From Pseudomonadota bacterium (lineage in GTDB: Bacteria > Bdellovibrionota > FAC87 > UBA2466): a stretch of 64,000 nucleotides of DNA. The position numbers were made by a program, and so were the translations under genes. The DNA is taken from the NCBI GenBank assembly GCA_043767805.1, contig JAYUGC010000053.1, positions 1 to 64,000 of the forward strand. The letters are read 5' to 3'. Each line of letters opens with the position of its first letter. Within the stretch, counting starts at the first letter, position 1. Below the pieces are notes generated by a model. That model was not told the origin of the DNA. It worked only from the letters and a program-made list of their open reading frames with translations, and searched no databases. Shown one piece after another: positions 44,930 through 57,460 of this stretch.

Positions 44930-45334
44930 TTGGAAACTGGATACATCACGGTCTTCTGGTTCGTGGTTTTCTCCTGTTTGACCGTTCCTTTGATGTTGGG
45001 AATCGGCTGGATCCTACGGCCGAAGCACACGCCCAAGGGTAAAGAAGCGCTTCCCTACGAGTGCGGCGAAGAGCCGACCGGTCCCGCCTGGGTACAGTTC
45101 AACATTCGCTTTTACGTGGTCGCCATCGTCTTCCTCATTTTCGACGTGGAGCTCGTGGCCCTTTATCCGGCGGCCGTTCTCTATAAGGACGCTATCAATA
45201 ACGGCACCGGGGCTTTGGTTTTCGCAGAGATTTTCCTGTTCGTGGGGCTCCTCCTTGTGGGCCTCCTCTATTGTTGGGTTCGTGGAGACTTGGAGTGGGT
45301 TAAGGGCATCATCAAGATCGCCCCCCAGAAATAA
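44930..45334 (+). CDS. nuoA: NADH-quinone oxidoreductase subunit A
   Basis: PYECGEEP, FYVVAIVFLIFDVE, GDLEW. Confidence 0.96.
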   Translation: METGYITVFWFVVFSCLTVPLMLGIGWILRPKHTPKGKEALPYECGEEPTGPAWVQFNIRFYVVAIVFLIFDVELVALYPAAVLYKDAINNGTGALVFAEIFLFVGLLLVGLLYCWVRGDLEWVKGIIKIAPQK

Positions 45335-45337
45335 CCA

Positions 45338-46483
45338 ATGGTACAAAGCGCAGCCTTTGCACAGTCCCTGCAGACCTGGGTGGGCCTCGGCCCCCTGTGG
45401 ATGTGGGCCGCCCTTTCGGCCTTACTGATCATCTATCTCTTGGCTCTGCCGTTCGGCGGTTTGGCCACGTACGTAGAGCGTAAGGTTTCGGCCGACATGC
45501 AGGACCGCATCGGTCCGAACCGGGTCGGTCCCCTCGGCATCCTGCAGTTTCTCGCCGACGCCGTGAAAATGATTTCGAAGCAGGATTTCGTTCCGCCCGA
45601 CGGCGATCGCTTCCTGTACGGCCTCGCCCCCATTCTGGTGGTCGGCGGCGTTTGCTCGGCCTTCGCCGTGCTTCCCCTCAGCCAGTACTTGATGGGCGCG
45701 GATATCGACATTGGCGTCTTCTACATGTTCGCCTGCAGCACCATCGTGGCGCCCGGCATCTTGCTCGGCTCCTGGTCGTCTGCGAACAAGTGGTCGCTTC
45801 TCGGAGGCCTTCGCGCCGCCGCTCAAATCGTCAGCTACGAAATCCCGGTGGCGCTTGCCATCGCGCCCATCATCTTGATCTCGGGCTCTCTTCGGGTCGG
45901 CAGCATCGTCGAGCAGCAAGGCTGGATTTGGTCGGGCGAAAACCCGTTGAACGCCCACTTCTGGAACGTGTTTCACAACCCGTTCTGCTTCGTGGCCTTC
46001 TTCCTCCTTTTCATCTCAGGCCTCGCCGAAACGAACCGCATTCCCTTCGACTTACCGGAAGCGGAATCGGAGCTCGTCTCCGGCTTCAACACGGAATTCT
46101 CCGGCATGCGCTTCGGCCTCTATGCCTTGGGCGAGTTCTGCGAAGTGTTCGTGATGTGCGCCCTAGCCGTCGCGCTTTATCTCGGCGGCTGGCATCTGCC
46201 CTTCTTAAATCTCGATGCCCTCTGGATCAAGCTCCCCACGGGACTCATCGCGCTCATTCAGTTCACGGTTTTCATGGCCAAGGTGCTCTTCCTGGTTTTC
46301 GTGGTCATGTGGTTGCGCTGGACTTTGCCCCGCCTTCGGGTCGACCAGCTCATGGGTTTCTGCTGGAAGGGTCTCGTGCCCTTGTCTCTCATCAACCTGC
46401 TCGGCACCGCGGTTTGGATGTGGGTGTTTCACAACAAATCGCTTATCCAGCTCGTTCTCGGCGCTGGCGGCGGGGGACACTGA
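45338..46483 (+). CDS. nuoH: NADH-quinone oxidoreductase subunit H
   Basis: ERKV..MQDRIGPN, SYEIP, ETNRIPFDLPEAESELVSG, PRLRVDQL. Confidence 0.97.
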   Translation: MVQSAAFAQSLQTWVGLGPLWMWAALSALLIIYLLALPFGGLATYVERKVSADMQDRIGPNRVGPLGILQFLADAVKMISKQDFVPPDGDRFLYGLAPILVVGGVCSAFAVLPLSQYLMGADIDIGVFYMFACSTIVAPGILLGSWSSANKWSLLGGLRAAAQIVSYEIPVALAIAPIILISGSLRVGSIVEQQGWIWSGENPLNAHFWNVFHNPFCFVAFFLLFISGLAETNRIPFDLPEAESELVSGFNTEFSGMRFGLYALGEFCEVFVMCALAVALYLGGWHLPFLNLDALWIKLPTGLIALIQFTVFMAKVLFLVFVVMWLRWTLPRLRVDQLMGFCWKGLVPLSLINLLGTAVWMWVFHNKSLIQLVLGAGGGGH

Positions 46484-46486
46484 TTT

Positions 46487-47005
46487 ATGTCGGATTCGGC
46501 AAAGCTTATCCTGCTCTTCGGGCAAATTCTGACCGTCGGCTCGGCGATCGTGGTGGCCATCCACCCGAATATCCTCTACGCGGCGGTGGCGTTACTCTCG
46601 ACGTTTCTGGGCGTGGCCATTCTCTTCTTGTTTAGTGGCGCGGACTTCGTGGCGGGCGCTCAAGTGGTGGTCTATGCGGGCGGTATCACCATCCTCATCC
46701 TCTTCGCCATTATGCTCACGCAGTGGCTCTATAAAGTTAAGCTGCGCGATTACGGCGCCAGGCTTCTGGTCCCAGCCGTAGTGGCTCTCGGCGTCTTTCT
46801 CGTCGTCTACCGCTCCACCGCGGAGCTCGGTAACTGGGCGCTAAAAAACGCGCCCACTGAAGCGGTCGACAAGTTCGCCTTCCTCCCGAAAACGGCCCTC
46901 ATCGGTCAGGCGTTTCTCGGCCCGTACCTTTTAGCCTTTGAAGCGGTAACCATTCTCTTATTGGGCGCGCTCGTCGGAGCGGTCTGGCTGGCGAGGCCTA
47001 AATGA
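46487..47005 (+). CDS. nuoJ: NADH-quinone oxidoreductase subunit J
   Basis: ADFVAGAQVVVYAGGI..LFAIML, FE...LLL.ALVGA. Confidence 0.94.
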   Translation: MSDSAKLILLFGQILTVGSAIVVAIHPNILYAAVALLSTFLGVAILFLFSGADFVAGAQVVVYAGGITILILFAIMLTQWLYKVKLRDYGARLLVPAVVALGVFLVVYRSTAELGNWALKNAPTEAVDKFAFLPKTALIGQAFLGPYLLAFEAVTILLLGALVGAVWLARPK

Positions 47006-47325
47006 ATCTTTTGAACTGGGCCACGGGCCTGCACGGCTACCTCTGGGTCAGCACGGCGCTCTTCGCGCTGGGCGTCCTCACCGTTTTGTCCCGCAAGAAC
47101 GCCATCGGAATCCTGCTCGGCGTCGAATTGATTTTGAACGCGGCGGCCATCAACTTCGTGGCCTTCAGCCGTTTTCGCACCGGCGCCGTCGACGGACACA
47201 TGGTGGCTCTTTTCATCATTTTGGTGGCGGCCGCTGAAGCTGCGGTCGCGCTCGCGATTATCTTGAGGCTCTACCGCCTCCGTCAGACGGTCGATACCGA
47301 CGAGGCGACCCTCTTAAGGAACTAA
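47002..47325 (+). CDS. nuoK: NADH-quinone oxidoreductase subunit K
   Basis: RKNAI..LLGVELILNA, AAAEAAVAL (both conserved Glu present). Confidence 0.96.
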   Translation: MNLLNWATGLHGYLWVSTALFALGVLTVLSRKNAIGILLGVELILNAAAINFVAFSRFRTGAVDGHMVALFIILVAAAEAAVALAIILRLYRLRQTVDTDEATLLRN

Positions 47326-47327
47326 CC

Positions 47328-49385
47328 ATGGCGCAAACTTGTCTGCTCATCGTGCTGCTTCCGCTCACCGCCTTCGTAGTGCAGGTGTTCTTCGGTAAGC
47401 GCTTGCCCCGCCAAGGAGACTGGGTCTCCATCCTGGCCATCGCCGGTTCGCTCTTTCTCGCTTTCCCGATTTTCACGGCTTTCCTCAGCACGGGTAACCT
47501 GCACGACACCTTGCAGACCACCTGGATGTCCCTGCCCATTCAGGTCTCCGGACACGGCGGCATGTCGTCTTTCGACATCGTCATCGGCACGCTGGTCAAT
47601 AACCTGACCGCCATCATGCTGTTTATGGTCACGCTCTGCGCGACCCTCATTCATATTTTCGCAAGCTCCTACATGCACGGCGAGCCCCGCTACCACCTTT
47701 TCTTCGCGTACATTTCGCTCTTCTCGGCGGCAATGCTGGGCTTGGTCGTCTCGGACAACCTGCTCACCTTCTTCATCTGCTGGGAGATCATGGGCCTTTG
47801 CTCCTACTCCCTCATCGGCTTCTACTACGAGAAGCCGTCCGCGAACGTGGCGAGCCTCAAAGCGTTCATGACCACTCGCGTGGGTGATTGCTGCTTCTTC
47901 CTCGGTATCTGCGGCTTGTACTTCCTGTTCGGCACTTCGAACTTCGAGCAGATTTATCAAAACCTCGCGATGCCCGAGCTCGCGGGACGCACCATCTTAG
48001 GGATGCCGGCCTTGGCCTTCATCGGCTTTATGCTGATGATGGGCACCATCGGTAAATCGGCGCAGTTCCCGCTCCACATCTGGTTGCCGGACGCGATGGA
48101 AGGCCCGACACCCGTCTCGGCCCTCATCCACGCGGCCACCATGGTGGCCGCCGGCGTGTTCCTGCTCATTCGCACCTTCCCGCTGCTTCAAGCCGCGGAA
48201 ATCGTGCTTCCGGTCATCGCCTACATCGGCGCGTTCACGGCGCTCTTTGCGGCGACGATTGCCCTGGTGCAGGTCGACATCAAGAAGGTGCTCGCCTACT
48301 CGACGATTTCTCAGCTCGGCTTCATGGTGTTCGGTGTCGGCGTCGGCGCTTTCGCGGCGGCTTTCCTCCACCTTCTCACCCACGCCGTTTTCAAAGCTTG
48401 TTTGTTCCTCGGCTCGGGTAGCGTCATCCACTCCGTTCACACGAACGACATGCGCGAAATGGGCGGCCTGCGCACCAAGATGCCTTGGACGTTCCGCACG
48501 ATGCTGATTTCCACTTTCGCCATCAGCGGCTTGCCCTTCTTTTCGGGCTTCGTCTCGAAAGACCGGATTCTCGCCGGCGCACTTGCTTACGGCATGGAAC
48601 ATCCGCAACACATGCTCGTGCCCATCTTCGGATTCACGGCGGCGGGCCTCACGGCGTTTTACATGTTCCGCCTGATCTACCTGACGTTCTTCGGCCACGC
48701 GCGGGACGAGCACAAGCACCACCACGCGCACGAGTCGAGCCCGGTCATGACGGTGCCGCTCATGATCCTAGCCACCCTCTCGTTTGCGATTTGGTACGCG
48801 GGCCCCACGGGCATCGAGTTTATCGATCACATCCTTCCGGTCCGCTGGTACGACATCGGCATCGCGAACGTCATGGAGTCGATGCACATTCACGCCGCCC
48901 ACGGCGACGAGCACATCCATCACCTCGCCCACAACCTGGCGCTCATTTTGTCGCTCTCCATCGCGGGCGCGGGCATCCTGCTCTCGACTTTGATGTACCT
49001 GAAAAAGGTAATCTCGCCGGACGCTATCCAAAAGCGTCTTTCGGCCGTGCACAAAGTGCTTTGGAACAAGTATTACGTCGACGAGCTCTTCATCGGCATC
49101 GGGATTAAGAAGGGTCTTTTGACCTTCAACAACCTGCTCGCCCGCTTCGACGACTTGGTCGTGGACCGGATTTTCGTCGACGGCTGGAAAGATATCGCCA
49201 TGGCCGTTAAGTCTGCGGTGAACCAGTTCGACAATATCGTCGTCGATAAGGGCCTCGTGGATGGAACCGCGTACGCGGTTTCCGCCGGCGGTTGGATGAT
49301 CCGTCAGTTTCAGACCGGTCAGGTGCAGACGTACCTCGTTTGGACCTTGGTCGCTCTTGGCATCTATTTGGTACGCGTTTTTTAA
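47328..49385 (+). CDS. nuoL: NADH-quinone oxidoreductase subunit L
   Basis: WEIMG, GKSAQFPLHIWLPDAMEGPTP, KKVLAYSTISQLG, GFVSKD, QTGQVQTY. Confidence 0.97.
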   Translation: MAQTCLLIVLLPLTAFVVQVFFGKRLPRQGDWVSILAIAGSLFLAFPIFTAFLSTGNLHDTLQTTWMSLPIQVSGHGGMSSFDIVIGTLVNNLTAIMLFMVTLCATLIHIFASSYMHGEPRYHLFFAYISLFSAAMLGLVVSDNLLTFFICWEIMGLCSYSLIGFYYEKPSANVASLKAFMTTRVGDCCFFLGICGLYFLFGTSNFEQIYQNLAMPELAGRTILGMPALAFIGFMLMMGTIGKSAQFPLHIWLPDAMEGPTPVSALIHAATMVAAGVFLLIRTFPLLQAAEIVLPVIAYIGAFTALFAATIALVQVDIKKVLAYSTISQLGFMVFGVGVGAFAAAFLHLLTHAVFKACLFLGSGSVIHSVHTNDMREMGGLRTKMPWTFRTMLISTFAISGLPFFSGFVSKDRILAGALAYGMEHPQHMLVPIFGFTAAGLTAFYMFRLIYLTFFGHARDEHKHHHAHESSPVMTVPLMILATLSFAIWYAGPTGIEFIDHILPVRWYDIGIANVMESMHIHAAHGDEHIHHLAHNLALILSLSIAGAGILLSTLMYLKKVISPDAIQKRLSAVHKVLWNKYYVDELFIGIGIKKGLLTFNNLLARFDDLVVDRIFVDGWKDIAMAVKSAVNQFDNIVVDKGLVDGTAYAVSAGGWMIRQFQTGQVQTYLVWTLVALGIYLVRVF

Positions 49386-49402
49386 GGTGATGTGAGGAAA
49401 CT

Positions 49403-50905
49403 ATGCTTAGTTGGATGACCTTTACCCCCCTTCTGGGGATGGCCGTCGTTCTTGCTCTCCCCAAGGAGAAGCACAATTTAATCCGCTGGACGGCACTCGT
49501 GACGTCCTTGATACCGCTCGGCTTCGCCGCGGTCCTTTTCATGCACTTCGACCGCACGACGGCGGCGATTCAGTTCGTGGAACGGGTTTCGTGGATTAAA
49601 CCCTTTAACATCGAATACTACATGGGCGTCGACGGCCTGAGCATTCCGATGATTCTGCTGACCGCCCTACTCACCGTCATCTGCATCATCGCCTCGTGGA
49701 CCATCGACTACGCGGTCAAAGGCTACTTCGCCATGTTCCTGATGCTGGAATGCGCCATGCTCGGCGTGTTCATGGCTTTGGACTTCTTCCTCTTCTTCAT
49801 CTTCTGGGAAGCGATGCTGCTCCCGATGTACTTCCTAGTCGGTATCTGGGGAGGCCAGAACAAGGTCTATGCGGCCATCAAGTTCTTCCTCTACACGCTG
49901 TTCGGCTCCGTCTTGATGCTGATCGCGATGCTGGGCTTTTATTACTACGGCGGCCAGAGCTTCGATCTCATCAAACTCGCGGCGACGCATCCGTTCGCGG
50001 GTCAGACGATTGCCCTCTTCGGCTGTCAGATGCCTCTCGATAAGTTCTTCTGGGTGATGCTCTTTATCGGCTTCGCCATCAAGGTTCCCGTGTGGCCTTT
50101 CCACACCTGGTTGCCTTGGGCGCACGTCGAAGCCCCGACGGCGGTCTCGGTCATTCTGGCCGGCGTGCTGCTTAAGATGGGAACGTACGGCATCCTGCGC
50201 ATGAACTTCCCGATCCTTCCCGAAGCGACCATGTGGGCCTCGAACGCCATGATGATCTTGGGCGTGATCAACATTCTCTACGGAGCCTTCTGCGCGATGG
50301 CGCAGAAGGATCTGAAAAAGCTCGTCGCTTACTCCTCCGTTTCCCACATGGGTTACGTGATGATGGGCATGGCGACCTTTACGGTGGCCGGCGTGAACGG
50401 CGCCGTTCTCCAGATGTTCAACCACGGTACGTCGACGGCCATGCTCTTCCTCTTGGTCGGCGTGATCTACGACCGCGCTCATCACCGCTGGATCGTGCGC
50501 CCCGACGGCTCGCGCGGCTTCGGCGGTATCGCCGCGGTCGCTCCCGTGTACACGGCGATTTTCGCGGTGGCGCTGTTTGCGTCCCTCGGTCTTCCGGGCT
50601 TGTCCGGGTTCATCAGCGAAGCGCTGATCTTCCTCGGCGCCTTCTCGGTTCCGAAGTACCAGACGCTCACCGTATTCGGCGCATTCGGCATCTTACTCGG
50701 CGCCGCGTACCTCCTCTGGATGTTCATGCGGGTGTTCTTAGGTCCCTTGAATCCCGAGTACGCGAACTTGGAAGACATGAACTGGCGTGAGCGAGGCATG
50801 CTCATTCCGCTTTGCATTCTCGTCGTGCTTTTCGGCGTCTATCCCATGCCGGTATTGAACTTGATGGGAGCGACGGTCGCAAAGCTCCTGACTTACTTTT
50901 CGTGA
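49403..50905 (+). CDS. nuoM: NADH-quinone oxidoreductase subunit M
   Basis: FFIFWE, AIKVPVWPFHTWLP.AHVEAP, LLKMG, GFISE. Confidence 0.97.
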   Translation: MLSWMTFTPLLGMAVVLALPKEKHNLIRWTALVTSLIPLGFAAVLFMHFDRTTAAIQFVERVSWIKPFNIEYYMGVDGLSIPMILLTALLTVICIIASWTIDYAVKGYFAMFLMLECAMLGVFMALDFFLFFIFWEAMLLPMYFLVGIWGGQNKVYAAIKFFLYTLFGSVLMLIAMLGFYYYGGQSFDLIKLAATHPFAGQTIALFGCQMPLDKFFWVMLFIGFAIKVPVWPFHTWLPWAHVEAPTAVSVILAGVLLKMGTYGILRMNFPILPEATMWASNAMMILGVINILYGAFCAMAQKDLKKLVAYSSVSHMGYVMMGMATFTVAGVNGAVLQMFNHGTSTAMLFLLVGVIYDRAHHRWIVRPDGSRGFGGIAAVAPVYTAIFAVALFASLGLPGLSGFISEALIFLGAFSVPKYQTLTVFGAFGILLGAAYLLWMFMRVFLGPLNPEYANLEDMNWRERGMLIPLCILVVLFGVYPMPVLNLMGATVAKLLTYFS

Positions 50906-50913
50906 GATGATGC

Positions 50914-52401
50914 ATGGCTAATCTGCTGTTGAACTTGAAGCTCTTTGGACCCGAAGCGACCCTGGTGGGTCTCTTGGTCATCCTCTTTCTGGTGGACGGC
51001 TTTCTGCCGAAATCCCGGGAGAGCTTCTTGCCGCTCTGCCTGGTCGCCTTGGCTTCGGCCTTCGCGGCCTACATCACCTGTCAGCTGAACGTCGCCCCGG
51101 CGACCTTCTTCACGGGTCTTGTGGCGAACGACGGGTTCTCGGCTTTTTTCCGCTACATCTTCTTGTTCACGCTCGTTGCGGGACTCTATTTGGCCTATGG
51201 CTCCAAAGAAGTGCCCAAAGACGCCCGCATCGAGATGTCGCTGCTCCTCGTTTGCGTGACTTTCGGCATGAGCCTCATGGCCATTGCCTCGAACCTCTTG
51301 ATGCTTTGGCTCGGCGTCGAAACGGTGAGTATCGTGTCCTTCGTGCTGGCGGGTTTTCGCCGGGACAACCTTCGCTCGAACGAAGCGTCCTTCAAGTACT
51401 TGGTCTACGGAAGCTTGGCTTCCGGACTCATGCTCTACGGCATGAGCCTCATCTATGGATTCGCGGGAAGCCTCTACTACGCCGACCTCAGCAAGTACTT
51501 CATGCTGCATTCGGGTGAGCTTCCCTACACTTTGGCGCTCTCCCTCCTTTTGGTGTTCGCGGGTCTCGCGTACAAAGTGTCGGCATTCCCGATGCACTTC
51601 TGGACCCCGGACGTTTACGAAGGCGCCCCCACTCCGGTGGCGGCGTTTTTCTCGGTAGGTCCCAAGGCGGCGGGATTTGCGGCCCTCATGCGCATCTTCC
51701 TCGACGTCTTTTCGTTCAAGACGGGGCCGCTTCAGTGGCATTCCGTCGAAGGCATCGCGATTCCCCACGGCTTGGCCATCATCGCGGCGCTCACCATGAT
51801 CGTCGGTAACCTTTCCGCGCTCGGACAGACCAACGTGAAACGCATGCTCGCCTACTCGAGCATCGCCCACGTCGGTTACATGCTGGCGGGTCTCGTGGCC
51901 TTAAATAGCGCGGGCATCACGGCGGTTCTCTTCTACATCGTCGCTTATTGCGGCATGAACCTCGGCGCTTTCTGGGTAGTGAGCGTCGTCACCGATCGGC
52001 GCGGCAACGAAGATCTCGAGGCTTTCCGCGGCATCGGCGCGAAGACGCCGCTGCTCGGCATCTGCATGGCGGTCTTTCTCTTTTCGCTGACCGGTTTGCC
52101 CCTTTTCTCCGGCTTCATTGGAAAGTTCCTGCTTTTTGGCGCCATTTTGCAGACTCCGGGCTTCCTATGGCTTGCGCTCATCGGCGTCTTGAACAGCGTC
52201 GTTTCGCTCTTTTATTACGTCCGGGTGCTGAAATCCATGTGGCTGGATAGTCCCGCGGCCGGAGACACCGGAGCGGTCGCGCTTCCGCTCTACCATGCGA
52301 TTCCGCTCCTGGGCCTCGCAATCCCAACCATCATTCTCGGCCTCTTTTTCACGCCCATTTTCGAGTTCGCGCAGCGCTCGGTCGCCGCCTTCCTCAACTA
52401 G
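50914..52401 (+). CDS. nuoN: NADH-quinone oxidoreductase subunit N
   Basis: GVETVS, YKVSAFPMHFWTPDVYEGAP, GPKAAG, KRMLAYSS, GFIGK. Confidence 0.97.
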   Translation: MANLLLNLKLFGPEATLVGLLVILFLVDGFLPKSRESFLPLCLVALASAFAAYITCQLNVAPATFFTGLVANDGFSAFFRYIFLFTLVAGLYLAYGSKEVPKDARIEMSLLLVCVTFGMSLMAIASNLLMLWLGVETVSIVSFVLAGFRRDNLRSNEASFKYLVYGSLASGLMLYGMSLIYGFAGSLYYADLSKYFMLHSGELPYTLALSLLLVFAGLAYKVSAFPMHFWTPDVYEGAPTPVAAFFSVGPKAAGFAALMRIFLDVFSFKTGPLQWHSVEGIAIPHGLAIIAALTMIVGNLSALGQTNVKRMLAYSSIAHVGYMLAGLVALNSAGITAVLFYIVAYCGMNLGAFWVVSVVTDRRGNEDLEAFRGIGAKTPLLGICMAVFLFSLTGLPLFSGFIGKFLLFGAILQTPGFLWLALIGVLNSVVSLFYYVRVLKSMWLDSPAAGDTGAVALPLYHAIPLLGLAIPTIILGLFFTPIFEFAQRSVAAFLN

Positions 52402-52403
52402 CC

Positions 52404-52460
52404 TCTTAAAAGATACGCCGTACCTTTTAGGACGACGGGGAATGGGTCCGACCGTATAAT
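52404..52460 (+). promoter_or_regulatory. Split palindrome plus a TATAAT -10 box upstream of the divergent Nuo-like operon
   Basis: TCTTAAAAG-ATACGCC-GTACCTTTTA (52404-52429); TATAAT at 52455-52460, 9 nt before the TTG; no clear -35. Confidence 0.45.
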
Positions 52461-52469
52461 TCGGGAACT

Positions 52470-53108
52470 TTGAGCTCCTATTTTTCTATCGGACTCTCGG
52501 CCTTGTCTATCGCCGGAGGCGCCGTGGTTTTACTCAGTCATGGCGGGCGTATGCTCGCGGGCGGCTGGGCACTCACCTGCTTCTCGCTCTCGATCCTCGC
52601 GCTACTGCAACCCGGGCCGCCTTGGCTCTTGGCTCTCTTAATCGCCGGGCTCGCCGTCAGTCTCGGCCTGTCGCTTGCGGTGCTCGCTTCGGAATCGCTT
52701 CCCGGGTTCTTGGACGGAAACGTTCGCAAAATTCTCGCGGTATTCGCGGTCTGGGCAATCAGCCTCTTCATCCTTCGCTCGTCCCATGCCTCGCACCTCC
52801 ATGGCGCGGCCGAGACCTATTGGTCGCTCTATAGTACGGCCGCCCTTTTCGGGCTGGGGTTACTCACCCTCATCCTAAAGCGAGACGCCGTGCAAGTATG
52901 GAGCGGGGTGGGCCTTTTACTTTTAAGTCCCTTACCCACTTCGCTCGCTTCGGCCGCGGGGCTGCAATCGGGAGACGGCTGGCTACTATCGCTACTTTGT
53001 GGCGCGCTTTGCGCCGTGCACGGCGCATTCGCGATAGTGGTACTCGGACGCGTCAGCCGCCGGGAAGGCTCTCTCGACGTCAAAACTTGGGAGGAGCTTC
53101 AAGGGTGA
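52470..53108 (+). CDS. Divergent NuoJ/NuoK-like fusion membrane protein
   Basis: C-half aligns by eye to this window's NuoK (STAALFGLGLLTLILKRDAV...RREGSLDV...LQG); hydrophobic N-half is only weakly NuoJ-like. Confidence 0.6.
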   Translation: MSSYFSIGLSALSIAGGAVVLLSHGGRMLAGGWALTCFSLSILALLQPGPPWLLALLIAGLAVSLGLSLAVLASESLPGFLDGNVRKILAVFAVWAISLFILRSSHASHLHGAAETYWSLYSTAALFGLGLLTLILKRDAVQVWSGVGLLLLSPLPTSLASAAGLQSGDGWLLSLLCGALCAVHGAFAIVVLGRVSRREGSLDVKTWEELQG

Positions 53109-54055
53109 TTGGCTTTCAACACACTTGGTGGCGCATCGCGAGCTTCGACATCCTCTGTAGCTGGTACGCCGATAAATTTGATCTAGCCGCGCTCTTTGCC
53201 GTCTTCGCGCTGACCGTGCTGTGGGCGGCTCGCCAGCCTCGGGCCACGTGGGCCGCGGTAGTGTGGTTTCTGGCGACGGGCGCGCTTTGCGGCGCGGGAA
53301 ACGCCTTCACGCTCATCTCCGCCTGGATGCTGGGAACCGTCGCGACCCTCGTCCTCTTTCACGCAAGCAGCGAGGGAAATCAACGCGGGCTATATACGTT
53401 CGCCCTGGCCGGTGCGCTTGCCGACGTTTTGCTTTTCTTGGGCTACCTGCTCTACGGCGGCACTTACCGAGACAGCTTTCTTCCTACCGAAGAACAATTT
53501 TTAGAAGCGTCCGTGGCTTTGACGACGTTTCCTGCAAAGGCCTTTGCCCTAAGCGCGCTACTCGCCGTCTTAGCACGCCTCGTTATCGGCGCGGGAAGTC
53601 TTTGGCTTCCCGGCGAGCCGCAACTTCAAGCAAGAGAGTTCTTGGCGCAAAGACTCGCCGTACTGCTCTTACCCTGCGTGATGCTACTCGATAAGCTCAG
53701 CTTTCTTAAAGCGGACGCCTCGGAAGGGGCGGTTCTCACCGTGCTAGTTCTTTCGATCCCCGCCATCTTGGGCGGTGCTTTTCACGCCATGAACCGGCCT
53801 TTCCCTTGGTTTCTCAATCCGGCCAAATGGTTCGACGAGCTCGTGCAAAAACCGTTGCGCTCTCTCATCGGCTTCTTCGACCGCAGGCTCGAAGCCCGCA
53901 CCTTCGATGCCATTTTGATTCTGCCCACCCGGCTCGCGCGGGCGGGAGGCGTTTGGATTTCGCTCGTTCAGTCGGGTTCGCTCGCCTCTTACCTTACGTT
54001 TTCCGTACTGGGAATGGCGGCGCTTTTTGCCTGGGCACTGTGGGGAGGCAAATGA
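53105..54055 (+). CDS. Divergent, internally shortened NuoL-like protein (about 316 aa)
   Basis: GTGA overlap; ADVLLFLG, SLWLP, and a C-terminal transverse-helix region ending SLVQSGSLASYL (compare QTGQVQTYL). Confidence 0.6.
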   Translation: MIGFQHTWWRIASFDILCSWYADKFDLAALFAVFALTVLWAARQPRATWAAVVWFLATGALCGAGNAFTLISAWMLGTVATLVLFHASSEGNQRGLYTFALAGALADVLLFLGYLLYGGTYRDSFLPTEEQFLEASVALTTFPAKAFALSALLAVLARLVIGAGSLWLPGEPQLQAREFLAQRLAVLLLPCVMLLDKLSFLKADASEGAVLTVLVLSIPAILGGAFHAMNRPFPWFLNPAKWFDELVQKPLRSLIGFFDRRLEARTFDAILILPTRLARAGGVWISLVQSGSLASYLTFSVLGMAALFAWALWGGK

Positions 54056-55569
54056 GTTACCTGCTTCCCTGGTTCTTTTATCTTCCGCTCATCGCCTTTG
54101 GCGCGGCGCTGCCTTTCTCGCTCGCTCTCTCCCGGCGAGTGGCCGGGGCGCTTGCGATCGTGAACTTCCTTGCTCCGCTGACGTTTTATACCTTAGGCGA
54201 CTCCGTGTGGCTCCAGACCCTGACAGGAATCACTTTCCAAAGCGGTCCCTTGCAACTTCAGCTCGATGCCTGGACGCTTCCCTTTCTGCTTCTCATCAAG
54301 CTCGCGGCCTTACTCGCCTTGAAACAACCTTCGGTCCGGCTGGGACGCACTCAGCTTGCCTGTCTTTTCGGAGCCGACTTTGCGCTTTCCGGGGCGCTAT
54401 TTTCCACCGATGTTTTTGCCATCGTATTTTTCTCGCAGCTCGCCCTTGTTCCCCTTTCGCTGCTCATCGTGATCTGGGGCGGGCACGACCGGCTCTTCGC
54501 TTCGCGGAAGTTCTTTTTGTCTCAAACCGCGGGCTGCCTGCTTTGGCTCGTCGCCTTGGCGATTCGCGCTTCCACTCACGAGTCTCAGTTCGGATATCCG
54601 AGCGGGCTCCCCGCGGATCTCGCCAAAGCCCTGGGACCGGCCGAGCTGACCGCTTTCGTCTGTTTTCTCCTGGGCTGTTTCCTTCGCTCCGCCGTGTTTC
54701 CGCTTCATAGCTGGCTGCCCGATACGCTGGCTCAAGCTCCCCTTTCGGCGAGTCTCCTTATCGTCGGTGGGCTGCTTCCTTCCGGCATTCTCCTGCTTCA
54801 GCGCGTGGGCCTTTCCGTTTTCCCGGCGGGCTTTGAGCGCGCGCAAAACCTGGGAACGGCCCTCGCGGTGTTCGGAGCGATTTACTCAGGGCTACTCGCC
54901 TGGCGGCAAAACGATAGCCGCCGCTACCTCGCCTTCGCGGCCAGTCTACTCATGTCGTTCGTTCTGGGAGGCGTGCTCATGGCGGGTCCGCTCACTTGGA
55001 CGGCCAGCGCCTTTCTCCTCTGCGCGGGCTCACTCGCGAGTCTTGGCGTTTTGATTCTTTTCGAGTGGGCTTTTGAGCGCCAGAATAGCCGTCAGCTACC
55101 GGATTGGGCGGGGCTCGGGCAACAGAGCCCGCTCTTCCGCGGTTTTCTCGTATTCCTCACCCTGAGCGCGCTCACGCTTCCGGGCACCGCGGCCTTTCCT
55201 GGAACCTTCGCGCTTTTGACCGCCGCCATAAACCGCAACTTCATCTGGTGTGTAGGCTGGCTTGCCTCACTTTTCCTTTTGATGGCAAGTGCCGTGCGCC
55301 TGCTCGGTACGATTTCCTTCGGCACGCCTCGCCGCGGCCCGCTAGTCGCTGGATCCGATCTGTCGACGAGTGAGTCGTTGAGACTCTTGGCCCTTTCTCT
55401 GCTTCTTTTGGCTTTGGGCTGCGCTCCCGGTGGGTTTCTGGCTTCTTTAGAGCGGCCCATCGAGTCTTTCTGGGAAGCGAGTCCCGCGAAGGAGCGGTTC
55501 GTCTTTCCCGGAGACGAAGGCAAGAGCACCTTGCCAAGAGTCTTTCACCGGGATGAGGTTCCGCAATGA
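54052..55569 (+). CDS. Divergent NuoM-like antiporter-fold protein
   Basis: ATGA overlap; IWGGHDRLFASRKFFL, VFPLHSWLPD..QAP, LPGTAAFPG. Confidence 0.75.
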   Translation: MSYLLPWFFYLPLIAFGAALPFSLALSRRVAGALAIVNFLAPLTFYTLGDSVWLQTLTGITFQSGPLQLQLDAWTLPFLLLIKLAALLALKQPSVRLGRTQLACLFGADFALSGALFSTDVFAIVFFSQLALVPLSLLIVIWGGHDRLFASRKFFLSQTAGCLLWLVALAIRASTHESQFGYPSGLPADLAKALGPAELTAFVCFLLGCFLRSAVFPLHSWLPDTLAQAPLSASLLIVGGLLPSGILLLQRVGLSVFPAGFERAQNLGTALAVFGAIYSGLLAWRQNDSRRYLAFAASLLMSFVLGGVLMAGPLTWTASAFLLCAGSLASLGVLILFEWAFERQNSRQLPDWAGLGQQSPLFRGFLVFLTLSALTLPGTAAFPGTFALLTAAINRNFIWCVGWLASLFLLMASAVRLLGTISFGTPRRGPLVAGSDLSTSESLRLLALSLLLLALGCAPGGFLASLERPIESFWEASPAKERFVFPGDEGKSTLPRVFHRDEVPQ

Positions 55570-56954
55570 ATCCTTCTTCCGCGACTTTCTACGTCGTGGG
55601 CTTTCTCTTCGCGAGCGCGGTGCTAGCCGCGGCGGTTGCGCACTCACGGCGGCTTTCTCTTTACCTTTCCGTTTTCGCTTTTGGGACGGCCGAGCTTGCG
55701 CTCGGCTGGCTCGCCGCTGGCAGAGTTGGCAACTGGCTTCCGCCCGTCGACTCCCGCTTTCTGACCCTCTCGGGTTACCGCTTGGATGCGGCTTCGCTCC
55801 TTCTGCTTTTTTGTGCGGCTTCTTATTTACTGGTCCACGCGTTTGCCGAAGATGAGGTGAAACGCGGAAGCTTGGGGCCGCTCTTCCTGCTTGCGGCGGC
55901 CGCGGGAATTTTATGCGCCGCCAGTGAGAACCTCTTAGTCACTTGCTTTGGCCTGGAGCTCGGCGCGCTTGCCGCCCACGGCATCACCGCCTTTCCCTCG
56001 CTCACCCGAGATCGGTTTGAAGCCCTCTGGAAACAGTATGCGTTCCATGGCCTGGGCACGGCTTGCCTACTTTTGGGCAGCGCTCTGTTTTACTCTCAGC
56101 TTGGCACTCTCGCTCTTACCGAAATTAGAGACACCCTTGCCGCCCAGCCGCCTTCGCCTTTCGTCACCGTGGCGTGTGTCTTATTGCTACTGGGCATCGC
56201 GGAGAGGCTCGGCGCGTTTCCCTTTCTCTCTTGGCCCGCCGACGTGACCGAAGGATCGCCATGGGGCGGGGTGTTTCTCGAAACGGCGGGACGCTTTATT
56301 TCGATCTGTGCCCTACTGCCGCTTTTCCTCGAAGCTCTGCTTCCGCTTCGGTCCGCTTGGGTGGGCCCGCTCTTCGTCATTGGCGGAGTCACTCTCGCGT
56401 GGGGCGCGCTAGGTGCGATCACGCAAACGAATCTGAAACGCTTACTCGCCTATTTAGGACAGGCGCACGTCGGGTGGCTACTTCTTTTTGCGGCGGCTTC
56501 CAGCGAACGAGGCAGCCTTGCCGGTCACTTTCTACCTTCAGCTCTCATCTTCGCCCTGGTCGCCCTCGGACTTCGCGCCGGTGTCTGTCTTTTGGAGCGC
56601 GAGGCAAATGACTGCGATATTTATCAGCTCTCGGGACTAGGAGAAACCCATCCCGTGCTCGCTCTGTGGTGGACGTTACTTTGCCTGGCCGGCGCGGGAT
56701 TTCCACCGACCTCCGGGTTTGCCGCGCAAACGGCTTTCTTCCTGGAGCTCGGCTCGACCGGCCACGTACTGCGCCTAATCGCCATCGGCGTGGGTTTATT
56801 GGCCGTGGCCTATTCTTACTTGAGAATGGTCGCTTACCTCTACGGCCGGGAATGCCGGGAGACCATCGCGTTGACCCACCGGGCGGCGCTTCCCATCGCC
56901 TGCGCCTCGGCGTGCGCGATACTGGCGGTAGTGCTCCTCTTTTTCTGGCGCTAA
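55566..56954 (+). CDS. Divergent NuoN-like antiporter-fold protein
   Basis: ATGA overlap; GLEL, EALWK, FPFLSWPADVTEG, QTNLKRLLAY...HVG, AGFPPTSGF. Confidence 0.78.
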   Translation: MNPSSATFYVVGFLFASAVLAAAVAHSRRLSLYLSVFAFGTAELALGWLAAGRVGNWLPPVDSRFLTLSGYRLDAASLLLLFCAASYLLVHAFAEDEVKRGSLGPLFLLAAAAGILCAASENLLVTCFGLELGALAAHGITAFPSLTRDRFEALWKQYAFHGLGTACLLLGSALFYSQLGTLALTEIRDTLAAQPPSPFVTVACVLLLLGIAERLGAFPFLSWPADVTEGSPWGGVFLETAGRFISICALLPLFLEALLPLRSAWVGPLFVIGGVTLAWGALGAITQTNLKRLLAYLGQAHVGWLLLFAAASSERGSLAGHFLPSALIFALVALGLRAGVCLLEREANDCDIYQLSGLGETHPVLALWWTLLCLAGAGFPPTSGFAAQTAFFLELGSTGHVLRLIAIGVGLLAVAYSYLRMVAYLYGRECRETIALTHRAALPIACASACAILAVVLLFFWR

Positions 56955-57270
56955 CGAAAGTCAGAAGGAAGCTTTCCAGTCACTTTGCGAAACGCGTGAA
57001 TGAATTGGGAGAGTGAGGAGTGGCCCACTTCGAGCGCCACGTCCGTCACGGAAGTGTCCCGCTTGTTTAAAAGACGTTTCGCCTTTTCCATCCGGCAGAA
57101 GAGCACCATCTGCTTCGGAGAAAAAGAAAGCTCGTCCAAACAAATCCGGTTGAGGCTTCTGAGGGAGAGGCCAGAGTGCTTCGCGATTTCTTCGACCGAC
57201 AAAGGCTCTTTGAAGTTCGCTTCGATATAATCGACCGCGCGAGTGACACGAGCATCTTTGGCGAGCTCAT
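56951..57270 (-). pseudogene. AraC-family regulator, C-terminal HTH domain only (N-terminal domain missing)
   Basis: RAVDYIEANF..EEIAKHSGLSLRSLNR..SVTDVALEVGHSSLSQF..AFRKVTGKLPSDFR; the upstream frame is the antisense of another gene relic. Confidence 0.65.
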
Positions 57271-57460
57271 GAAGTCGAAATGCTTTGCTCTCGCTCTCCT
57301 TGCTACCACGGCCTGCGCGGCCCAAAAGCCCGCGGTCTACACGTTCGAATCGGACAGGGGGTGGCTTTAACACCAAAAACTATTTCTACGATAACGGAGA
57401 AGAAGTGGTGGCGTTCGATACGCAGTTCACGCCCGAGCTCGCGCGACAATCGATCAAGGT
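57269..57460 (+). pseudogene. Frameshifted, truncated exported-protein relic (probably an MBL-fold hydrolase N-terminus)
   Basis: MKSKCFALALLATTACAAQKPAVYTFESDR, frameshift at G5 (57357-57361), then GGFNTKNYFYDNGEEVVAFDTQFTPELARQSI; ends before any HxHxDH motif. Confidence 0.55.

Follow-up and report, generated by a model that had tools for sequence, protein, structure and literature searches.

The window analysed here, a stretch of 64,000 nucleotides (nt) designated G000:C53:1-64000, comes from a host genome (G000) that is 100% complete with 2.8% contamination. It carries a canonical Complex I membrane-arm operon (arm 1) and, behind its nuoN, a set of four coupled open reading frames (ORFs), ORF1 to ORF4. 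With a probability of roughly 0.6, this set is a remodelled remnant of a second membrane arm (arm 2), which would have lost both its relay residues and its redox partner and would be kept by selection as a non-pumping membrane subcomplex. Compared with the canonical arm, seven of the eight relay Lys/Glu residues of the M- and N-type proteins and both glutamates of NuoK are replaced in ORF1–4, and the scores fall below the NCBIfam cut-offs for NuoM, NuoN, and NuoK. In the following, L1, M1, and N1 denote NuoL, NuoM, and NuoN of arm 1, and the suffixes 2 and 3 refer to arm 2 and to a third set of Complex I genes in G000 (set 3), respectively.

Relay residues of the NuoM- and NuoN-derived proteins

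ORF3 and ORF4 match PF00361 with 101 and 120.4 bits, respectively (gathering score 21.5 bits), compared with 245–271 bits for L1, M1, and N1. Among the NCBIfam models, ORF3 is best matched by NuoM (TIGR01972, 171.3 bits, under the cut-off of 263.8 bits; M1 reaches 581.4) and ORF4 by NuoN (TIGR01770, 162.2 bits, under the cut-off of 332.6 bits; N1 reaches 384.8). The MrpD-type NCBIfam models score below these Nuo models, with 57.9 versus 171.3 bits for ORF3 and 78.7 versus 162.2 bits for ORF4.

The relay was scored at four sites in each protein, namely the Glu of transmembrane helix (TM) 5, the Lys of TM7, the Lys of TM8, and the Glu/Lys of TM12, corresponding to E144, K234, K265, and E407 in NuoM and to E133, K217, K247, and K395 in NuoN. 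In HMMER alignments to the E. coli chains, ORF3 keeps none of the four residues (E144Q, K234R, K265P, and E407T), and ORF4 keeps E133 alone of its four (K217R, K247R, and K395Q). These are exactly the substitutions that a preliminary description of the locus had read by eye, and the profile alignments bear them out. The TM7 His is likewise replaced, by Leu in ORF3 and by Leu/Val in ORF4. Canonical proteins were taken from arm 1 in five genomes, from arm 2 in four, and from set 3 of G000. The relay residues are intact in 10 of 10 NuoM and 10 of 10 NuoN sequences; the three ORF3-type and three ORF4-type orthologues carry the replacements. According to PMC3046159, mutation of M_K234, N_K217, or L_K229 abolishes function, and exchange of E144 for Ala or Gln in NuoM or NuoL abolishes activity.

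Within the clade, Q129, R212, and P243 of ORF3 are invariant in all three orthologues, the site of E407 varies between Thr, Ala, and Val, and the replacement states of ORF4 are identical in three of three orthologues. Such invariance is suggestive and falls short of statistical proof.

A protein-wide shift from Lys to Arg is also present across 54052–56954. The K/R counts are 6/25 in ORF3 and 3/22 in ORF4 versus 15/11 in M1 and 13/13 in N1, and the regional G+C is alike.

The K-like protein and its predicted contact with ORF4

ORF1 is matched by PF00420 with 19.1 bits, under the gathering score of 26.1 bits, and such sub-threshold matches are obtained for three of the four members of its family; the E-value against E. 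coli NuoK is 0.007. In a profile–profile comparison (hhalign), residues 110–212 of the ORF1 family (four members) align with positions 4–107 of a NuoK profile at 96.7% probability and an E-value of 3.8e-10. Homology of the C-terminal 103 residues with NuoK is thereby supported at the level of profiles. In this K-like part, E36 of NuoK is replaced by G148 and E72 by H184 (HMMER alignment to E. coli NuoK), as the preliminary description had stated. Both G148 and H184 are invariant in four of four family members, one of them at 42% identity, and the invariant His184 together with an SPLP motif constitutes a new feature of the K-like part.

The N-terminal 109 residues of ORF1 are hydrophobic. They show no Pfam match (PF00499, NuoJ) in any of the four members, and hhalign aligns them with NuoJ at a probability of 6%, though in a colinear match. 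As a lead only, an Atlas feature search links ORF1, at 0.89, to a cluster whose domains are MbhD and Oxidored_q2. This N-terminal segment of ~109 residues is possibly a NuoJ/MbhD remnant. Of the 'JK' label previously given to ORF1, only the K part finds support, at the hhalign value given above. Only three true relatives of ORF1 are found among 1.84 billion representatives, with lengths of 220, 288, and 212 amino acids (aa) at 62, 57, and 43% identity, respectively.

A complex of ORF4 and ORF1 is predicted with a score of 0.71, versus 0.00 for the best control. Of 157 solved complexes, 116 attain this value, and of 215 mismatched pairs, 2 do. At least 90% of the contacts recur between runs, and the predicted local distance difference test (pLDDT) value of the partner is at least 71. 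The predicted interface is formed by residues 122–199 of ORF4, including the retained Glu131, and residues 116–209 of ORF1, involving the K-like part only, as in solved Complex I. Because NuoK–NuoN complexes are already solved, this result indicates likeness to the known pair rather than proven binding.

ORF2 as a C-terminal remnant of NuoL

By profile comparison, ORF2 is the C-terminal ~290 residues of NuoL, the first ~340 residues being missing. A hidden Markov model (HMM) of eight NuoL sequences aligns residues 205–314 of ORF2 with positions 518–631 (hmmsearch, E-value 4e-12), and hhalign places residues 29–316 colinear with residues 344–632 of L2 at 96.5%. The protein also fits, by profile similarity, the NuoL C-terminal module of ~115 residues that comprises the lateral helix and the last TM helix. 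Searches with ORF2 returned no match in Pfam or NCBIfam, the NuoL models TIGR01974, PF00361, and PF00662 included, and no relevant match in the PDB. The antiporter core of NuoL with E144, K229, and K399/D400 has no counterpart in ORF2, and the 'SGFFSKD' stretch of NuoL is not conserved in it (alignment A5). The preliminary description had read E144M and K229R in this L-like protein, which proves wrong in view of the colinearity with NuoL 344–632 only; both residues are absent rather than substituted, because the part of NuoL that carries them is deleted.

ORF2 has 316 aa in three of three full-length orthologues, and two metagenome orthologues stand at 77% and 66% identity. A search for related loci with the ORF2 family over the genome contigs returned no relative. 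The AlphaFold2 models of ORF2 have a mean pLDDT of 41.4 with a 3-row alignment and 45.8 with 11 rows including C-terminal halves of NuoL, which is too poor for a fold search.

Derivation from a tandem second arm

In four relatives (G005, G008, G011, and G025; loci L022–L025), arm 1 is immediately followed by a canonical second arm, A2-H2-J2-K2-L2-M2-N2, with L2 of 629–634 aa. These genomes were picked from 40 searched as having both arms on one contig; G005, G008, and G011 belong to the same family, and G025 represents another family of the order. In G005, the genes preceding arm 1 are shared as well. ORF4 aligns with the arm-2 NuoN of the relatives at E-values of 1e-38 to 1e-47 and 29–36% identity, versus an E-value of 3.5e-17 with its own arm-1 NuoN. 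In a mixture-model tree, to be read with the long stems and unusual composition of the ORF3 and ORF4 clades in mind, the ORF3 clade is nested among the same-family sequences of the arm-2 NuoM clade with a support of 100/99, and M3 falls outside the arm-2 clade (89/88). In approximately unbiased (AU) tests, the groupings ORF3+M3 (p = 0.018) and ORF3+M1 (p = 0.007) are both rejected. For ORF4, the grouping with N2 is not rejected (p = 0.49), and those with N3 and N1 are weakly rejected (p = 0.029 each).

As judged from gene order and phylogeny, ORF1–4 is a derivative of the canonical tandem second arm that is still kept in the sister genera, an origin not recognised in the preliminary description. 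It has in common with that arm its genomic position, the gene order, the grouping of the M and N proteins, the NuoK-like domain, the C-terminal region of NuoL, and the canonical predicted K/N interface. It differs from it in being without NuoA, NuoH, the NuoL core, and a dedicated peripheral module; a NuoA- or NuoH-like ORF is absent both between nuoN and ORF1 and beyond ORF4.

A copy of the 14-gene operon of the same genome (set 3) was considered as an alternative source of ORF1–4 and rejected, with M3 and L3 lying outside the arm-2 clade and ORF3+M3 failing the AU test.

The redox side of G000 is smaller than its membrane side. The genes nuoB/C/D/I are found at two places and nuoE/F/G at one, and three sets of the L/M/N type are present; arm 2 is considered an orphan because three arms face two peripheral modules. 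Its redox partner may have been lost when an operon of the set-3 type took over. Among the relatives, two NuoD loci are found in four of five checked genomes, and one NuoF in five of five.

In the relatives with tandem arms, both peripheral modules lie elsewhere in the genome; for two Complex I isoenzymes, such a division of the operons is unusual. The two types of Complex I are patchily distributed in the family according to the identities of the set-3 NuoF, which amount to 86% in G001 (a genome of the same genus as G000), 75–78% in G009, G012, G019, and G023, where the operon is contiguous, and 71% in one genome of another family. The remaining full-length family members, including the four tandem-arm genomes, show 53–57%; two partial matches at contig ends (G015 and G031) are omitted from these ranges.

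Purifying selection on the four genes

All four ORFs are intact in both G000 and G001, with no stops, and they do not classify as pseudogenes. Their divergence is given in Table 1. The alignments contain no gap block in ORF3 (500 codons) and none in ORF4 (461 codons). From the intact frames, the overall ratio of nonsynonymous to synonymous divergence (dN/dS) of 0.16–0.25, and the lack of indels in ORF3 and ORF4, it follows that the genes are under selection and not in decay. As controls, the arm-1 nuoN shows 77.7% identity with a dN/dS of 0.15, and the 14 genes of set 3 show 70–93% identity with a dN of 0.07–0.24 and a dN/dS of 0.06–0.18.

Table 1. Divergence of the four ORFs between G000 and G001 (Nei–Gojobori estimates; the G001 ORFs are split over two contig ends). 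aa, amino acid; pN and pS, proportions of nonsynonymous and synonymous differences.
ORF	Codons compared	aa identity (%)	pN	pS	dN/dS
ORF1		50.5	0.33	0.70	0.22
ORF2	130 and 189 of 316	57 / 54	0.29–0.31	0.66	0.24
ORF3		61.6	0.27	0.70	0.17
ORF4		61.8	0.25	0.70	0.16

Metagenome orthologues extend this picture, with an ORF4 of 463 aa at 74% identity and an ORF3 of 506 aa at 62% identity; a search for related loci with the ORF4 family over the metagenome contigs returned no relative. In addition, a low-depth strain-variant contig covering 53765–53914 differs at 14 listed positions, 11 of which are third codon positions of ORF2 (binomial p = 7e-4), and the change is synonymous in 9 of 13 codons. On the trees, the stem branches carry 3.84 changes per column for ORF3 and 3.2 for ORF4, versus 0.15–0.47 and 0.11–0.50, respectively, on the crown branches. 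The long stems followed by short crowns point to a burst of change and then renewed constraint.

The set might nevertheless be a slowly decaying relic, which became redundant after the nuoA-N operon arrived and is functionless and not yet broken. Such a relic would agree with the deletions of A2, H2, and the NuoL core that have already occurred, with the loss of functional residues, with a dN about twice that of the canonical arms, and with the very narrow distribution. However, it is an unlikely explanation given that pS (0.66–0.70) far exceeds pN (0.25–0.33) and that ORF3 and ORF4 are without stop, frameshift, or indel in two species. It is further opposed by independent metagenome contigs, on which the ORF lengths are maintained (316/316/316, 462/463/463, and 505/506 aa), by an ORF1 relative that, at 43% identity, retains both the length of 212 aa and the residues G148 and H184, by the short crown branches after the long stem, and by the retained start/stop overlaps. 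The preliminary description had argued against simple decay from the intact frames and their coupling. That argument is upheld by the orthologues now found in a second species and on three metagenome contigs, at the dN/dS range given above, with pN far below pS and replacements invariant in the clade.

Alternative roles and proposed course of events

A further explanation is that the set is still an ion transporter or channel. Another ion (or protons) would pass along a polar axis rebuilt from Arg, His, and the retained Glu, in the manner of Mrp without a redox module. The retained antiporter fold (PF00361), the kept E133 of the N-like protein, the Arg in place of Lys at three relay sites, and the new invariant His184 and SPLP motif of the K-like part are all compatible with transport. 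Moreover, the module is self-contained with a K-like subunit, and it resembles the Mrp system (CPA3; MrpA/C/D) in combining stand-alone antiporter-fold subunits and a NuoK-like subunit with no redox module. Transport nevertheless appears improbable. In the M-like protein, none of the four relay residues remains, with K265P and the change of E407 to Thr, Ala, or Val among the replacements; the exchange of Lys for Arg is protein-wide and not a site-specific redesign, and Arg is a poor proton carrier; and the core of the MrpA type, i.e., the NuoL core, is deleted. The set also differs from Mrp in that the Nuo models outscore the MrpD models for ORF3 and ORF4, and no MrpE/F/G-like gene is adjacent to ORF1–4, where nuoN lies upstream and an AraC-like gene downstream on the opposite strand. 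Mrp itself keeps the relay residues, whereas the relay is missing from ORF1–4.

Alternatively, the set could serve one of the two functioning Complex I enzymes as an accessory module or as a different distal one, possibly by docking on arm 1. This would fit the same strand, the 68-nt distance to the arm-1 nuoN with no terminator called, and the 23-residue insertion in the lateral helix of L1 relative to L2 and L3, but it is highly doubtful, as the insertion also occurs in G005 and G011, whose arm 2 is canonical, and is thus not tied to the degenerate set, and as an own K-like subunit and an own lateral helix fit a separate assembly.

For the preferred reading, a remodelled non-pumping remnant of arm 2, the following course of events is proposed. 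The ancestral state would have comprised two canonical tandem arms with two peripheral modules elsewhere in the genome. In the genus of G000, a complete 14-gene nuoA-N operon of the other type is present besides an 11-subunit-type pair (nuoBCDI and arm 1), with no third peripheral module. The subunits A2 and H2, which couple to the quinone site, would have been deleted, J2 and K2 would have become one 212-aa protein, and L2 would have been cut to its C-terminal helices and lateral helix. In M2 and N2, a burst of change would have replaced the Lys/Glu/His relay, and the set has since settled under purifying selection. The four proteins may still assemble in Complex I order, as K-like/N-like/M-like, clamped by the L-derived lateral helix. 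Such a subcomplex would be incapable of redox-driven or relay-based proton pumping, would be made together with arm 1, and may be kept for a structural or other non-canonical membrane role. A more far-reaching version is offered only tentatively, in which the orphan arm would have been exapted as a four-protein, relay-less antiporter-fold complex with a selected function unrelated to redox-driven pumping, e.g., as a membrane scaffold or organiser of the co-encoded Complex I or as a pathway for some other ion.

Several points weigh against this reading. The dN of ORF1–4 is 0.31–0.44 versus 0.16–0.20 for the canonical L, M, and N proteins (~1.7–2.5-fold), indicating relaxed constraint, and the near-saturation of pS makes the dN/dS ratios rough, if anything overestimated. 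The clade is small, with two species genomes and three metagenome contigs. The invariance of the replacement residues is statistically not telling, since about half of the columns are invariant in the 3-row alignments of ORF3 and ORF4, and the exchange of Lys for Arg keeps the charge, so that some ion-handling role is compatible with the data. The groups of the AU tests were named after the first tree had been inspected. Furthermore, the clamp role of the ORF2 lateral helix rests on sequence homology only, because the ORF2 models are poor (pLDDT 41–46), and a search among sequencing runs for the stretch returned no RNA run.

Gene layout, junctions and spacer

The features of the locus and the related loci elsewhere in G000 are collected in Table 2. 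The four ORFs after nuoN and their coupling, as described previously, were reproduced with exact coordinates: the junctions ORF1/ORF2, ORF2/ORF3, and ORF3/ORF4 are GTGA, ATGA, and ATGA overlaps, respectively, and ORF1–4 contain no internal stops. The segment 52300–57100 recurs with no indels in contigs from two more runs of the same study; run X4, which covers only a small part of the stretch, was left out. An assembly artefact was considered and rejected on the grounds that the same arrangement occurs in G001, on both JGI and Logan contigs, and in the contigs of these two runs.

Table 2. Features of the locus and related loci in G000.
Feature	Position	Strand	Description
Arm 1, nuoA-H-J-K-L-M-N	44930..52401	+	Canonical membrane-arm operon; strong Pfam and NCBIfam matches for 7/7 genes
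nuoN–ORF1 spacer, 68 nt	52402..52469	+	TATAAT at 52454-52459; two blocks shared with G001
ORF1, 212 aa	52470..53108	+	NuoK-like domain, C-terminal; TTG start
ORF2, 316 aa	53105..54055	+	By profile comparison, NuoL-derived C-terminal part: region of TM12-15, lateral helix, and last helix
ORF3, 505 aa	54052..55569	+	NuoM-derived antiporter-fold protein
ORF4, 462 aa	55566..56954	+	NuoN-derived antiporter-fold protein
AraC-type regulator-like ORF	56951-57376	-	Converges on the end of ORF4; same place in G001, 67% identity
nuoB-C-D-I, peripheral partners of arm 1	G000:C170:3877-6533		Found by tblastn
Complete nuoA-N operon (set 3)	G000:C15:7397-17906 and G000:C182:45688-48424		Outside the window

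In the spacer, the literal TATAAT lies 10 nt upstream of the TTG start of ORF1, inside a block conserved in G001, TATAATTCG...TTG. A second block, GCCGTACCTT, is likewise conserved, and an 18-nt stretch between GCCGTACCTT and TATAATTCG is missing from G001. The conservation of these blocks stands out because the synonymous sites of the flanking genes are nearly saturated. A consensus promoter scan called no sigma-70 −35/−10 pair on the plus strand before ORF1, and a terminator scan called none 3′ of nuoN. The TATAAT box that the preliminary description assigned to the set is present as a literal motif. The spacer blocks may serve as an internal promoter or in translation initiation.

Two features of the arm-1 NuoL (685 aa; 47328–49385) are recorded here. 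The 23-residue lateral-helix insertion relative to the NuoL of arm 2 and set 3 is situated near the 3′ end of the gene (alignment A5, columns 315–337); it resembles a tandem duplication of a 'FD..VVD..VDG' unit and is also found in the L1 of G005 and G011. In the '2M' type of Complex I, an extra antiporter-like subunit goes together with a longer helix in NuoL; at the present locus, no such subunit has been assigned. Furthermore, the arm-1 NuoL contains a His-rich loop (48700–48760), 'RDEHKHHHAHES', in place of which the NuoL of arm 2 and set 3 has the shorter 'YRG..HPHE'.

Relation to known systems and significance

In second, partial nuo clusters of other bacteria, e.g., Streptomyces and Desulfurivibrio, nuoAHJKLMN are likewise reported to stand apart from nuoBCDI, with more than one arm per genome. 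Proteins of PF00361 are recruited outside the classical Complex I in several systems, including DabB, NdhD3/F3, HyfB/D/F, and MbhH. To our knowledge, the Lys/Glu relay is retained in these recruited subunits, each of which works with a defined partner enzyme. The lateral helix of MBH is a separate small protein, MbhI, and ORF2 is nearly reduced to the same state.

Elsewhere in G000 (G000:C71:24245-29585, minus strand), two PF00361 ORFs, of 434 and 405 aa, come after a 941-aa ORF that we take to be DabA-like from a reading of its N-terminal sequence. This cluster resembles an inorganic-carbon module of the Dab type and has no relation to ORF1–4.

In the literature searched at the level of titles and abstracts, no description was found of a membrane arm lacking both its relay residues and NuoA/NuoH. 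If a function of its own holds true for the set, it would be a case of the antiporter fold used without its relay, for which the same abstract-level search gave no description either. The part of Complex I concerned is its most debated one, and the locus offers a natural experiment in which antiporter-like subunits are conserved without the relay, NuoH and NuoA, and the NuoL core. Since the ancestral canonical state persists at the same locus in the sister genera, the features of the fold that serve structure and assembly can be compared directly with those that serve ion transfer. The set may also provide a traceable case of the fate of a respiratory membrane arm once its redox module has been replaced.

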